From assembly GCF_006345805.1 (NCBI RefSeq), contig NC_042999.1, positions 156,178,001 through 156,242,000 of the forward strand: a stretch of 64,000 nt of DNA. The letters run 5' to 3'. The notes beneath the pieces are model-generated. The model was not told where the DNA came from and made no database searches. It was given only the letters and a program-made list of their open reading frames with translations. Source of the stretch: Octopus sinensis (taxonomy: Eukaryota). Position 1 is the stretch's first letter. Every line of letters begins with the position of its first letter. This document shows positions 28,455 to 35,831 of this stretch, piece by piece. The translations under genes were made by a program, and so were the position numbers.

Positions 28455-30789
28455 CTGAAAAAAAAAAGAAAAACAGAGAACATAAAATAATAAATGATAA
28501 AATGCTTTAGCGATTATGATGAAATAAATTTACATACATATTTACATGTGTGTGTGTGTGTGTATGTGTGTAAAATCTATATAACATAAGTTTGGATTTT
28601 TGTATGTTTTATTAAATGTTGTAGATAGATAATCATGAATTATTTCCTTTCGCTTAACTTGCACATGTACAGCTAATTATGAGAATTTATTGTTTACGTT
28701 TAATAATTTGAAAGTGAATTTAACGATGTACATTGTAATATCCGGAGATAAATACTGTATATCTATTTATTACACATTTTAGTTACTAAGAAAATATACA
28801 TTAAAATATTACATAGTTTTTACAAAAAGTAGAATATAATATTATATAACTTTACGGTTTGTTATTACATAGGTTAGTACATACATGTATGTGGTTATTA
28901 CATAGGTTAATACATGCATGTATATATGTATATGAGTGTATATTTCCATAGGCTGAAACAGCTGTAAGTGATTTTAATGATTCTTACAATTTATATTAAT
29001 GTTTTTTAATAACTACTTGTATTCTTATCCTAAATGTATTGAATTTTATACTGTATATATGTATGTTATTATGGTTGTAGTTTTGATAATTAAATAAGTC
29101 AACATTCTAATATCCTAAAGCTGATAAACCAACTAATGTGTTTCTCCATTTTCTTATTTGTAATAATGGTAAAATATTGTAAAAAATTGTAATAATAGTA
29201 AAATATTTCTTTACCTTCACCCATTTAATACAATAAGTGAGTTTATTGCATTGCAATTAAAAACACTTGTGTATTAATAATTTGGGTAGTATACCAACAG
29301 TATACTGGATAAGTATTATCCCTTAGAGGGTTGGATCCACAACCCCTAACTTACTTGATGGTATACTCTTTTACTCTTTTACTTGCTTCAGTCATTTTGA
29401 CTGCGGCCATGCTGGAGCACCGCCTTTAGTCGAGCAAATCGACCCCGGGACTTATTCTTTGTAAGCCCAGTGCTTATTCTATCGGTCTCTTTTGCTGAAC
29501 CGCTAAGTGACGGGGACGTGAACACACCAGCATCGGTTGTCAAGCAATGCTAGGGGGACAAACACAGACACACAAACACACACATATATATACATATATA
29601 CGACAGGCTTCTTTCAGTTTCCGTCTACCAAATCCACTCACAAGGCATCGGTTGACCCAGGGCTATAGCAGAAGACACTTGCCCAAGATGCAACGCAGTG
29701 GGACTGAACCCGGAACCATGTGGTTGGTTAGCAAGCTACTTACCACACAGCCACTCCTGCGCCTATGTATATATATATATCAATAATAATAAAGGGTAAA
29801 ATTAATTTATCAATTAATAATTTTACCAAGTAGTTTGGTATGTTAAAAGAATCGTTATCAGTAACCTTATACAAAAATTCTATAATTATAACCATAATTA
29901 TAATTAGGGTTCAGCAAAATTTGCTTTACCACATAACGAAATTTAGAAATAGCAGTATGTGGTGAAGCAATTTTTGCTGAACCCTAATTATAATTATGCT
30001 TATAATTATAGAATTTATATATATATATATATATATATATTACTGCCGGTGGTACGTAAGAGAACCATACAAACGTGGCCGTTGCCAGCGCCACCCCGAC
30101 TGGCCTTGTGCCGGTGGCACGTAAAAAGCACCATCCGATCGTGGCTGTTTGCCAGCCTCGTCTGGCACCTGTGCTGGTGGCACATAAAAATCACCCTCTA
30201 CACTCACGGAGTGGTTGGTGTTAGGAAAGGCATCCAGCTGTAGAAACATTGCCAGATCAGAAAGGGCCTGGTGCAGCCTTCTGGCTTCCCAGACCCCAGT
30301 TGAACCGTCCAACCCATCCTAGCATGGAAAGCGGATGCTAAACAATGATGATGATGATGATGATGATGATATATATATATCAGTAGGTCATATAACTGAA
30401 AAAGAAGCATACTCTAAAACATTAGAGCAGTCATATATTTTTTTTAGGAAGTTAAATATTATGGCCATAGGGTGACCAATAGACACTCTATTACTGGCCA
30501 TAGAATTTAACTTCCTAATATATATTATATATATATAAAATACTGCAATACAAATGTATTACTTTCCAGTAAAATAAAGCACCGTAAAGGTAGAAGTATA
30601 AATATAGAATAGTGGTACAAGGCACCAATATTAACAGGAAACAGCATTTGATACATTTATAATGCTATAGTATACTAGCATTGATGTAGCAACATTTGAA
30701 ATATTGTCCAGGTGAATCCAGCTGATGAAGACAATCGATTTTACATTATTTACAATTGATGGATATTTGTCCTCATCTTGTTTGTTGTT

Positions 30790-30835
30790 AACACAATGTT
30801 TCGGCTGATATACCCTCCAGCCTTCATCAGGTGTC
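30790..30835 (-). ncRNA. Minimal hammerhead ribozyme motif, inverted copy
   Basis: Minus strand reads GACAC-CTGATGA-A-GGCTG..CAGCC-GAAACATT-GTGTT. Helix I is GACAC/GTGTT. Confidence 0.68.
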
Positions 30836-31039
30836 TTGGACAAATTTTGAACCTGGGTTCTCATTCCTATGGTATTTTTCGATGTTATTATTATTATTAT
30901 TATTCAGGTCACTGCCTGGAAATGAACTCAGAATCTTGGGGTTAGTAGACTGCGCCCTTAACCACTACGCCATATGCCCATGGAAGTTAGGAGCGCGGGC
31001 TACTAACCCCAAGATTCCGAGTTCGATTCCAGGCAGTGA

Positions 31040-31092
<53 letters not shown>

Positions 31093-31139
31093 TCGAAAAA
31101 TACCTTAGGAAGGAAAACCCAGGTTCAAAATTTCCCCAA

Positions 31140-31185
31140 GATTCCTGATGAAGGCTGGAGGGTATATCAGCCGAAACGTTGTGTT
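31140..31185 (+). ncRNA. Minimal hammerhead ribozyme motif (Penelope-like element type)
   Basis: CTGATGA-A-GGCTG..CAGCC-GAAACGTT-GTGTT. Confidence 0.7.
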
Positions 31186-31904
31186 AACAACAAACAAGAT
31201 GAGGACAAATATCTCTCAATTGTAAATAATGTACATAATTCCTCATCTCTTAAATATAGAACTGTAATCAATTTTATGTTGACAAATGTATTTGAAGAGT
31301 CCGAAACCTAGGTACTGGATTATCCAATTCTGGGTTGTTCATTTATCTAATGTTCTTCCTAGAGGTAACACAAAATTTTTCATGCTTGCTGCACTCACAC
31401 GTCTTTGCCAGTATATACACAGTGAAGCTTTACTATAGCATCGTAAATGTATCAACTGCTATTTCCAGTAAATATTGGTGTCTTGTTGTACCACTGCTCT
31501 ATATTTTTATATATATATAGGATACATCAACATCATAATTAAAATCAAATGGAAATTGCAGTTGTGATACCCGTACTAGTGGCATATAAAAAACACCATC
31601 CGAACATGACCGATGTCAGCGCCGCCTTGACTGGCTTCCATGCCGGTGACACATAAAAAGCAACAACTAATCATGGCTGTTACCAGCCTCCTCTGGCCCC
31701 TGTGCCGGTGGCACGTAAAAAGCACCCACTACACGCATGGAGTGATTGGCGATAGGAAGGGCATCCAGCTGTAGAAAAACTGCCAGATCAGACTGGAGCC
31801 TGGTGCAGCCTCTTGGCTTCCCAGACCACGGTCGAACCATCCAACCCATGCTAGCATAGAAAATGGATGTTAAACGATGATGATGATGATGATATATAGG
31901 ATAC

Positions 31905-33770
31905 AGGTATACATAGCCAAGAGAGTAGCAGAAAAGAAGTTTGCCAATGTTCAGCAACGTGAGGACCAAAGAACTGATGGTGTGTGAGAGAAAACCATGA
32001 TGTTATAGGAGAGAAATGTGTCCACATGGATGATGGTGCCCTTATGCTTAATGATTCTGCAAAGAAAGATGCCATTATGAATGACTGCTGAATGCGGAGA
32101 ATGAATAGAAAGAGAGTCTGCCAAAGGTTGACCCAATTGAGGGACCAGCTACCCGAATCAACAGTACTCTGGTAGATAAAGCAATTAAGGATATGAAGAC
32201 AAGGAAAGCACCTGGTCCATCAGGACTCACCGCTGAGATGTTTAAAATATCAGGCAGTGTGTGTTATGTCTAGTCACTCGCAACATAAATCAGGTAGTTC
32301 ATGAAGGAATCATACCCAATGACTGGTGTAGCAGCACCATAGTCAACTGCTACAAAGATAAAGGCGATGCTTTAGATAGAAATAACTACAAGAGTATCAA
32401 ATTATTGGATCAGGTGATAAAAGCTACAAAGAGGATCATAGTCCAACTAATTAGGGAGAGAGTTAAGCTAGATGAGATGTAGTTTGGTTTTGTGCCAGGC
32501 AGAAGCACCATTGATACTATATTTCTGGTAAGGCAACTGCAGGAGAAATACCTAGCCAAAGATAAACCTCTGTACTTGGCTTTTGTTGACTTGGAGAAAG
32601 CCTTTGACAGGGTCCCCCAATCCCTTATCTGGTGATCAATGCAGAAACTGGAGATAGATGAGTGGTTGTTAAGAGCTGTACAAGCCCTGTACAGAGATGC
32701 TGTCAGTAAGGCTGGCAATGAGTATAGTGAAGAATTTTGAGTAGAAGTAAGGGTTCACCGAGGATCAGTCTTCAGCCCCCTCTTATTCATTATAGTCCTC
32801 CAGGCAATAACAGAGTAATTCAAGATGGGCTAACCCTGGGAGCTCCCCTATGCTGACGACCTTACTCTAATAGCTGAGTCGCTGCCAGAACTAGAGATGA
32901 AATTTAGGGTGTGGAAGCAAGGTCTAGAATCAAAGGGCCTTAGGGTTAACCTAGCAAAATCCAAAATCTTAGTAAGTAGGAAGGCTGCCAAATCACAAAC
33001 CCCTTCAGATAGATGGCCCTGCTTGATCTGTAGAAAAGGTGTGGGTAGAAACTCCATAAGATGTACCCAGTGTAAGCTATGGACACATAAAAGGTACAGT
33101 AATATGAAAGGAAGGTTAACCGGGAAGATAGTTTTTGTGCGTGGCAGATGTACAGGGGCAATAAACACTGAAGATTTACAGAAAATAGATTCCATCAAAT
33201 GCTGGGAGGGAAAACTAGAAGTAGTTAATAGCTTCCGCTACCTAGGCGACCAATGCTCTGAGAATGTAGCAGCTAGAGTAAAAATAGCCTGGGAAAAGTT
33301 TAGGGAGCTCCTACCTCTGCTGGCACCTAAGGGCCTCTCGCTCAGGATGAAAGGTAGACTGTATGGTGCATATGTGTGAACTGCCATGCTACACAGCAGT
33401 GAAACATAGGTCATGACTGCTGAGGACATGGGTAGGCTTGAAAGAAATGAAGCTAGTATGATATGCTGGATGTGTAATGTCAGTGTGCATACACAACAGA
33501 GAGTAAGTGCCCTGAGAGGAAAGTTGGGCATAGGAGGCATCAAACGTGGTGTGCAAAAGACGACTGCACTGGTATGGTCATGTGTTATGTATGGAGGAAG
33601 ACAGCTGTGTGAGGAAGTTCCACGCCTTAACTGTGGAAGAGGTAGACTCAGGAAGACATGGGATGAGGTGGTGAAGCAAGACCTTTGAACATCGGGCCTC
33701 ACAGAGGCAATGACAGGAGACCAAGACCTTTGGGGATATGCTATGATTGAAAAGTTCCAGCAATTAAAGT
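31905..33770 (+). mobile_element. Decayed RTE-clade LINE (RT domain + PHD-like insert + C-terminus)
   Basis: KAPGPSG, FGFVPGRST, AFVDLEKAFD, GSVFSPLLF and YADDL motifs with many stop codons. Confidence 0.92.
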
Positions 33771-33873
33771 GAGATTGCATTGTATTAAAGTACAAGTGAA
33801 GATATATAAACCTCAGAGGGATAGAAATATCCAAGATTAGACTGGTTGAATACCTTATAATATAGGCATATAC

Positions 33874-34770
33874 ATCATCATCATCATCATTCATTTAGCG
33901 TCCGTTTTCCATGCTAGCATGGGTTGGACGGTTCAACTGGGGTCTGGGGAGCCTGAAGGCTGCACCAGGCCAGTCAGATCTGGCAGTGTTTCTACAGCTG
34001 GATGCCCTTCCTAACGCCAACCACTCCGAGAGTGTAGTGGGTGATTTTATGTGCCACCGACACAGGTGCCAGACGAGGCTGGCGAACGGCCACGCTCGGA
34101 TGGTGTTTTTTATGTGCCACCGACACAGGTGCCAGACGAGGCTGGCAGATGGCCACGCTCGGATGGTGTTTTTTATGTGCCACCGACACAGGTGCCAGAC
34201 GAGGCTGGCAGATGGCCACGCTCGGATGGTGTTTTTTATGTGCCACCGACACAGGTGCCAGATGAGGCTGGCGAACGGCCACGATCGGATGGTGTTTGTT
34301 ACGTGCCCGCAGCACGGAGGCCAGTCGATGCGGTACTGGCTACGGCCACGTTCGGATGGTTTTCTTGTGTGCCACAAAGATACAAATTCCATTGATGTTC
34401 ATCTATTTTGATTTGATTTGATTTGATTTTCACTTGCCTCAACAGGTCTTCACAAGTGTCACAAGAAGGAAGGTATGCACAGGTGGACTGACTACGTCCC
34501 AGGTAGGGGCCACGGGTTATGGCCTGACTAGTCTTGCCGGGTCTTCGGATGGTGTTTTTATGTGCCACCGACACAGGTGCCAGATGAGGCTGGCGAAACG
34601 GCCACGATCGGATGGTGTTTGTTACTTGCCCACAGCACGGAGGCCAGTCGATGCAGTACTGGCTACCGCCACGTTCGGATAGTTTTCTTGTGTGCCACCG
34701 GCACTGGTACCACAAAGATACAAATTCCATTGATGTTCATCTATTTTGATTTGTTTTGATTTGATTTGAT
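33874..34770 (-). mobile_element. Long family B copy with four tandem 63-bp units and a 5' duplication
   Basis: Units start at 34051, 34114, 34177 and 34240. Confidence 0.85.
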
Positions 34771-34812
34771 TAGATTATTATTATAAGAATCAAGAGAGAA
34801 GATGGAGATCAA

Positions 34813-35600
34813 CATCATCATCATTGTTCGAACATGGTCAAGACAATGGAATTTACCATGCTACACCAGCTTCACGGTCCATCATAGCATTACGGAGGTC
34901 GTGTTGCTGGATGCCTGTATCCCTGGAGATTACATCAGGGTAGGAGAGTGTGCGCCCTCTGGTAACACAAGTAGATGGCTTCCAGAGGAGAATAGCAGAA
35001 ATTTTCCTCGTTTTCAGCTCTACAACAATGTCCAGCAAACTGGACTCTTCTACCTTTCACAAGAGATGATACAGGTGGTAGTTTCCCATATATTTGTACT
35101 TTGGTTGGATGACGCTTCCACAAGAGATTTTGAGCTCTCATAAGGAGGTGAGTGTAAGTTCCATCCAACCGCCTCTCAAGCTTCTTCGATAACGTCCAGG
35201 TTTCTGAGCCATGTAGTAGAATTGGTTCGACTGTGGCTTTGAAGATTTTAAGTTTGAAATCTCTACTTAGATTTGATGACCAGATCTTATGCATATCATT
35301 ACAGGCTGACCAGGCCATACCCTTTCTAGTTAGAAAATCTTTTTCAGATGATGATATGTATGACCCAAGATATTTGTAATCAGAAACCATATTTAAGAGC
35401 GTATTGTCGAGAGTATGGATGATGAAATCACTGTTGGACAGACACTTGTTTATATATTTTGAGCTCTCATAAGGAGGTGAGTGTAAGTTCCATCCAACCG
35501 CCTCTCAGGCTTCTTCGATAATGTCCAGGTTTCTAAGCCATATAGTAGAATTGGTTCGACTGTGGCTTTGAAGATTTTAAGTTTGAAATCTCTACTTAGA
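34813..35600 (-). mobile_element. RTE-like LINE 3' fragment, near-identical to 19700-20338, with an internal duplication at 35458-35600
   Basis: Same peptide on the minus strand; 35458-35600 repeats about 35128-35270. Confidence 0.9.
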
Positions 35601-35831
35601 GATGGAGATATGATTAATAAAAATGTATTAATACACTGACAAGACCTACAATTGTTTCAACTGATTCAAAACATCAATATGAATTGACAATATGAAATAA
35701 CTCTTTTGGACTGATAAGGGACATTACAAGGTCTACCTAATGGTTAGTTTTTAAAAGTCTTAACCAAAACAAGCAACAGTGAAGAAGACAAAAAAGATGA
35801 AGGGGAAAGAGGATTTAATTACAATACTGAC

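Follow-up and report, generated by a model that had tools for sequence, protein, structure and literature searches.

How did three hammerhead cores come to lie nested in a single intron of Octopus sinensis, and can any of them cleave? A first-pass annotation of the window (the whole 64,000-nt stretch of contig NC_042999.1 that was analysed) had described three cores, the foldbacks and their nesting, all of which are real and lie where it had placed them. The reading we favour, to which we assign a probability of about 0.72, is that the locus consists of head-to-head Penelope/Poseidon-type pseudo-LTRs in stem II of an ORF-less Penelope-type unit, that this nest is likely inert, and that a captured tRNA-SINE head likely serves the inner family as its promoter.

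The nest is located in the first coding intron of a JAK1-like gene of the 2.7 Gb Octopus sinensis genome. This location had been proposed earlier and is borne out by exon mapping, with the FERM exon in the window a 100% match to the JAK1-like protein of Octopus sinensis. Absent from the first-pass annotation were the placement of JAK on the minus strand and a tRNA-like head on each arm of the insert. Since the JAK exons are on the minus strand, two of the ribozymes, the outer one and that of the right inner arm, run antisense to the gene. The features in window coordinates are as follows.

28457..35830 (limits approximate), minus: JAK1-like first coding intron hosting the nest
From 35890, and from about 28453, minus: JAK coding exons, the former encoding residues 1-20, the latter being the next exon
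30535..30672, minus: outer element 3' end, inverted copy; its ~65-nt tail (30535-30596) is on this arm only
30597-30672 and 31431-31509: inverted arms, outer
30669..30743, plus: outer 5'-truncated forward copy, part 1, with donor-like CAG/GTGAAT, helix I 5' strand, CTGATGA and the start of stem II
30715-30721, plus: outer hammerhead helix I 5' strand, AATCCAG
30722-30728, plus: outer core CTGATGA
30729-30732, plus: outer A-GAC
30733..30743 (left) and 31266..31276 (right), plus: target-site duplication of the inner insertion, 11 bp, one mismatch
30742-30975 and 30986-31233: inverted arms, inner
30742..30979, minus: inner inverted pseudo-LTR without tail, with head, (AAT)n, ORF start codon and hammerhead
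30790..30835, minus: inner hammerhead, left arm, sense to JAK; core at 30830, helix III palindrome broken (ACAT for ACGT)
30905..30979, minus: tRNA/SINE-derived head, left arm, with an intact A box (30972-30962) and a mutated B box
30976..30985, no strand: head-to-head junction, near-palindrome GCCC-NN-GGGC, right side deleted
30986..31265, plus: inner pseudo-LTR, forward and tailed; comprises a head remnant whose B box (31021-31030) is intact, (AAT)n (31044-31091), a hammerhead and the tail
31140..31185, plus: inner hammerhead, right arm; core 31145-31151, stem II GGCTG/CAGCC, palindrome ACGT, one helix I mismatch, predicted cut after 31180
31234..31265, plus: Penelope tail, 32 nt, near-ORF-start coding sequence in full-length copies
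31266..31509, plus: outer part 2, with the remainder of stem II, GAAA, helix III palindrome, cut site, helix I 3' strand, acceptor-like CTAAT..TTCCTAG and a 3' end in (TA)n
31299-31302, plus: outer GTC-C
31303-31306, plus: outer GAAA
31306-31313, plus: outer helix III palindrome ACCTAGGT
31314, plus: outer A17, with the predicted cut after it, as first proposed
31315-31321, plus: outer helix I 3' strand, CTGGATT

The insert had been described as a palindrome of ~520 bp flanked by a duplication. It is indeed a foldback, but an imperfect one, with the 32-nt tail only on the right arm and ~16 nt of the right-arm head lost; the duplication is present, its length corrected to 11 bp. The left outer arm extends to about 30535 as an unpaired tail. 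Other repeats were observed around the nest: a MITE-like small hairpin with 31-nt inverted arms (30437-30525) immediately left of the outer element, a common repeat ending in (GAT)n, present in two same-orientation copies that bracket the nest (30040-30380 and 31570-31900), and, in the same intron, decayed LINE-type RT fragments (31940-33600, plus; 34856-35656, minus).

A genome search with 31270-31510 as query returned 1,592 outer-family candidates, of which 40 were scored. The insert is absent and the two outer halves are contiguous in all 29 other outer loci examined, and a 25-nt pattern spanning the empty site has 120 exact matches in the genome. The proposal of two ribozyme-bearing retroelement families, one inside the other, is therefore upheld by the very comparison that had been suggested for it. 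The outer unit is 436 nt long with variable 5' truncation and a fixed 3' end in (TA)n. Some copies carry a ~65-nt tail, and partial tandems and inverted 5' flanks occur, a tandem at locus L275 holding two ribozymes. The unit is ORF-less (longest stop-free stretch 90 codons), and no autonomous partner was found in a small sample of 29 control-family and 14 GIY-YIG loci. The outer family matches what would be expected of a retrozyme-like, non-autonomous unit of Penelope type.

Helix III of the outer hammerhead occurs in two palindromic forms: ACCGGT accompanies a GTC site, ACCTAGGT a GTA site. Such a palindromic helix III indicates Penelope-type dimeric hammerheads, as had been recognised. Covariation was scored in 23 of 59 copies, namely those lying on the plus strand of their respective loci, with one row (L055) off register. 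The hammerhead pairs in 91.6% of cells, and 14 cells display two-sided change versus 6.5 in shuffles (0/500), mainly at two helix I pairs and in counts inflated by kinship. Core pairs of stems II and III displayed no two-sided change in these 23 copies, where related copies likewise inflate counts. The covariation proposed as a check is hence found for helix I but not for stems II and III.

Two further observations concern the outer unit. A donor-like CAG/GTAAAT is conserved before the hammerhead, with a second donor 2 nt past the first, and a branch and acceptor-like CTAAT..TTCCTAG follows it (window 30710-31361; loci L241-L270); these motifs suggest that the outer ribozyme lies within an intron. 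In outer units such as L045, L047 and L056, a short hydrophobic frame opens near the 3' end, crosses the tail and terminates where two units join. This frame, read by eye, may be the start of a lost parent ORF.

Can the ribozymes at this locus cleave? The hammerhead model search proposed earlier produced nothing: the Rfam hammerhead had no match at gathering score in the whole window, and none up to E = 5 in the nest region, where the core is interrupted or duplexed. The first-pass annotation had proposed that the insert serves as an extended stem II and leaves the outer ribozyme foldable and cleaving. The outer core, helix I and helix III are intact, the native outer stem II is already long, and outer helix I reaches a probability of about 0.8, though only in a wider sequence context. 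However, stem II is still unformed in that context, and within 30700-31335 its probability is about 0 and the hammerhead fold lies 8.6 kcal/mol above the minimum. The tail and duplication furthermore produce a branched junction, a dimer partner would be required, and the strand is antisense to JAK, so we regard cleavage through an extended stem II as very improbable. In the predicted fold, every position of the right inner core pairs with the left arm. The thermodynamic model behind these predictions disregards dimers and co-transcriptional folding; by its account both inner cores are trapped in duplex, and the hammerheads in the foldback cannot fold. Of the three ribozymes, only the left inner one is in sense orientation to JAK, and it has ACAT for ACGT in helix III. 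The modelled folds thus point to a nest that is likely inert.

The family behind the insert was traced with 31090-31235 as query, which gave 1,397 candidates. One copy (L010) carries a Penelope-like RT thumb fragment, and this peptide as query returned 4,212 candidates; among the 30 loci examined, 22 have the head sequence downstream of the RT thumb. Inner copies that reach the 5' end have the order head, (AAT)n, ATG, hammerhead in the ORF, the tail as coding sequence, RT and GIY-YIG. Copy L226 begins at head +3 and reads through hammerhead and tail into the ORF. A single full-length copy with a head was found, and its start is the head. The predicted inner cut is inside the ORF, downstream of the first ATG. 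The majority ORF encodes 816 aa with DKG, YVDD and CCHH-type endonuclease motifs, i.e. RT plus C-terminal GIY-YIG. Pfam RVT_1 matches it weakly (E 0.001), and comparison to the PDB retrieves distant RTs and telomerase only. Homologues reach 68% identity and carry PF00078, few with PF01541, and one (P0006) retains the hammerhead-encoded peptide. The RT-endonuclease linker lacks the Cys pairs of the control families and hence has no zinc finger, as in the Penelope/Poseidon group. By its coding sequence, the inner family is a Penelope/Poseidon-type retrotransposon with an RT plus GIY-YIG ORF in the same genome.

As the inner terminus belongs to an ORF-bearing element, the insert corresponds to two pseudo-LTRs head to head. 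For the same reason, the claim that both families are non-autonomous stands for the ORF-less outer family but not for the inner one, whose terminus also ends RT plus GIY-YIG ORFs. Copy number of the inner family is, as a crude estimate, of the order of 10,000, with four insertions in ~375 kb of unselected flank. Structural counts were made on 89 copies defined by the B-box pattern only (90 of the first 100 listed among 992 exact matches, one duplicate dropped). An inverted arm is present in 47 of the 89, and of 43 copies with two arms, 40 have the tail on one arm and not the other. With the window included, a 10-16-bp target-site duplication was counted in 27 of 44 two-armed copies (a raw count without null) and no duplication in 15 of 44. 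By pattern, the inner hammerhead is fully intact in 8 of 67 arms. A GT centre was considered as a mark of the tail-bearing strand and dropped, as L006 and L008 contradict it. Two variants were also seen: 100-900 bp of other sequence often splits the (AAT)n of the inner pseudo-LTR (L121-L210), and in L237 the inner pseudo-LTR and ORF start are fused to the RT of a Neptune-like family.

These counts bear on possible host co-option of the locus, e.g. for RNA editing of a long double-stranded substrate or as a switch that cleaves within the JAK intron. A duplex of >200 bp forms on either strand of the nest, and the foldback region has a folding z of -45 (vs 20 shuffles). With an inverted arm in more than half of the sampled copies the foldback shape is ordinary, and the arms show the usual decay, including the broken helix III in the only sense ribozyme. 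Co-option thus appears extremely unlikely.

What sets the inner family apart is its 5' terminus. Approximately 30 nt past the stop codon, the sequence TGCCC-AC-GGGCA is followed by 75 nt of tRNA-like shape, in which TGGCGTAGTGG forms the A box and GTTCGATTCC the B box. Using a profile built from 15 tRNAs of the same genome, all 89 heads score, with a median of 14 bits, which falls within the span of local SINE heads, compared to 4 of 890 shuffles (maximum 8.4). The Rfam tRNA model has no match to the head, whose acceptor stem is degenerate, and ARAGORN at default settings found no tRNA in it. Relaxed ARAGORN scores were discarded as evidence because control loci matched everywhere. Of the few isotypes compared as source tRNA, Arg(TCT), Ala and Lys come out with similar scores. 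The head scores 50-64 against local SINE heads and 48-58 against sampled tRNAs; being slightly nearer the former, it is likely to originate from a captured SINE. In one copy (L014), what follows the head's B box is the body of another common repeat, which may reflect recombination at the B box. The head pattern has 0 matches in viral contigs, and a tRNA-profile match after the ORF was found neither on the sense strand of 80 related loci of other organisms nor in 14 further GIY-YIG loci of the same genome. Within the open literature searched, which takes in neither Repbase nor Dfam, we found no Penelope element described as carrying a tRNA head. Judged by its tRNA-SINE head, the inner family looks new.

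The 5' ends of inner copies cluster at the head: 49 of 89 lie at -8..+2 (16 of them at -7), 2 at -19..-9, 7 farther upstream and 31 inside the head, and 7 of the 89 sampled heads align to the upstream UTR. Type 2 polymerase III promoters start 13-14 nt before the A box, and the modal 5' end has this spacing. The same nesting could nevertheless hold with the head a mere passenger, either an old SINE relic a short way into a polymerase II transcript or a hairpin that stops or folds back reverse transcription, with no polymerase III role. We place this somewhat below even odds. Its higher scores against SINE heads are compatible with such a relic, 17 of 89 inner copies begin with a short snap-back hairpin, and an uncapped transcript would be a poor message. 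An internal promoter of LINE-like type has been reported for the Penelope of D. virilis (PMC2377424), and palindromic defined 5' ends also occur in Penelope elements without tRNA heads (PMC3846280). The promoter spacing of the modal 5' end argues against a passenger, as does the T-run content of the element, although the T-run statistic is weak.

Polymerase III terminates at runs of at least four T. The 2,642-nt inner majority unit (ORF and pseudo-LTR, UTR included) contains no TTTT, and copies contain 0.43 per kb. The expected count is 4.7 by base shuffle (p 0.006) and 4.4 by third position (p 0.006), while stricter nulls give 2.8 by synonymous shuffle (p 0.04) and 2.6 by dinucleotide shuffle (p 0.059), with all inner-family copies treated as a single observation. 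GGGG is likewise absent (p = 0.039). In contrast, Penelope-like ORFs of the same genome have about twice the expected TTTT: four intact ORFs of two Neptune-like lineages with similar T content contain 9, 13, 10 and 9. In a control family, the majority sequence has 6 in 1,682 nt, and TTTT occurs at 3.95 per kb. Among 73 related ORFs of other organisms (from 80 loci, 7 of which were excluded for their length or for lack of a match), 3 lack TTTT, and those inspected have no head. The deficit fits polymerase III transcription of the inner family and is, with its borderline statistics, suggestive and not decisive. Counts of poly(A) signals were uninformative as a polymerase clue. The genome also holds a young Neptune-like family with intact 780-aa frames (L396, L397, L409 and many other places); Neptune-like L396, L403 and L406 have repeated TGACGTC and ATTGG motifs in the 3' region, which we take to be a polymerase II-type consensus.

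On this sequence evidence, polymerase III use for short RNAs of the inner family has slightly better than even odds, and its use for the full coding RNA is doubtful. The latter would make the whole 2.6-kb coding element a polymerase III transcript with cap-free translation, possibly aided by the hammerhead beside the start codon. TTTT is absent across ORF and pseudo-LTR, the single full-length headed copy starts at the head, and self-cleavage can promote cap-independent translation in other systems, according to the accessible part of PMC13725137. The borderline statistics and a predicted cut within the ORF, past the first ATG, speak against it, and we consider it unlikely. In its fullest form, an autonomous coding Penelope-type element would have captured a tRNA-SINE head as promoter, been purged of polymerase III terminators over 2.6 kb and become wholly polymerase III-transcribed, each solo pseudo-LTR being a ribozyme-bearing SINE mobilised by its parent. 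This scenario is tentative, with odds well under one half; if true, the element would possibly provide a natural polymerase III message for an 816-aa protein.

Returning to the favoured reading, head-to-head pseudo-LTRs behind a likely promoter head, the insertion would proceed as follows. The RNA would start at about -7 of the head, and the element endonuclease would nick both target strands about 11-14 bp apart. Two cDNAs would begin at two internal sites bounding the tail, and their far ends could meet via the near-palindrome GCCC-AC-GGGC (by annealing or snap-back) or via microhomology. Joining would then lead to a foldback with the tail on one arm. The hammerheads are presumably ordinary dimer-type Penelope ribozymes, carried along. 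Less certain is the proposal that RNA polymerase III is recruited by the A and B boxes, if only to make the short RNAs from which most copies arose.

As a chance insertion of element kinds already known, the nest itself is of less interest than the family behind the insert. SINEs are passengers of LINEs, and terminal repeats with an internal polymerase III promoter are known from non-coding LTR elements. A tRNA-headed coding Penelope would join SINE passengers and polymerase III terminal repeats, giving a SINE-like mode for Penelope elements. As tail side, junction position and centre dinucleotide are readable in thousands of insertions, the large set of inner copies constitutes a test bed for Penelope foldback formation.

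The architecture described by the first-pass annotation was already known, as inverted pseudo-LTRs, tails and opposite-strand hammerheads are in print. As far as the consulted portions of these sources go, Craig et al. describe inverted pseudo-LTRs and a one-sided tail for Penelope, PMC11167929 both-strand nicking and two internal RT starts bounding the tail, with ribozyme cleavage unneeded in vitro, and PMC3846280 inverted pLTRs, 5' palindromes, self-priming and 8-10-bp TSDs. The accessible text of the octopus repeat annotation counts Penelope families and does not mention ribozymes. The inner family resembles Anolis PAc (PMC11167929) and Adineta Pen2/Pen2a (PMC3846280), in the sections available, in its single RT plus C-terminal GIY-YIG ORF starting in the pseudo-LTR, a hammerhead at the ORF start with a 30-40-nt coding tail on one end, and inverted pseudo-LTRs with palindromic junctions and short duplications. 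It differs from them as there described in that its pseudo-LTR opens with a tRNA/SINE head (A and B boxes) and (AAT)n, and the whole unit has no TTTT.

The hammerheads share an extra nucleotide after A9, a short helix I and a palindromic helix III with or without a 2-nt insertion with the minimal Penelope hammerheads of Cervera and De la Pena 2014 (PMC4209133), whose available text already reports hammerhead pairs 100-700 bp apart on opposite strands. The outer stem II region, at ~42 nt, is longer than the 7-8-bp helix given there. The non-LTR retrozymes of animals represent non-autonomous Penelope derivatives (PMC7229834; bioRxiv 10.64898/2026.07.22.740005) and, in the parts of these papers at hand, are like the outer family in being ORF-less, with a type I hammerhead and head-to-tail units. 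Unlike them, the 436-nt outer unit is mostly dispersed and truncated at its 5' end; it has a tail, its flanks are inverted and its targets are (TA)n. The inner head has partial parallels elsewhere. Schistosoma Sm-alpha SINE-like repeats also combine a polymerase III promoter and a hammerhead in one repeat; these are non-coding tandem repeats with no tie to a coding element's terminus described in the consulted text of a review (PMC6765202). TRIMp3 elements (Cassandra, Helenus, Ajax) likewise have a small-RNA-derived polymerase III promoter in the terminal repeat, with SINE insertion proposed as its origin in the accessible text of PMC10886601; they are non-autonomous LTR elements, whereas the inner repeat here is that of a coding Penelope-type element.
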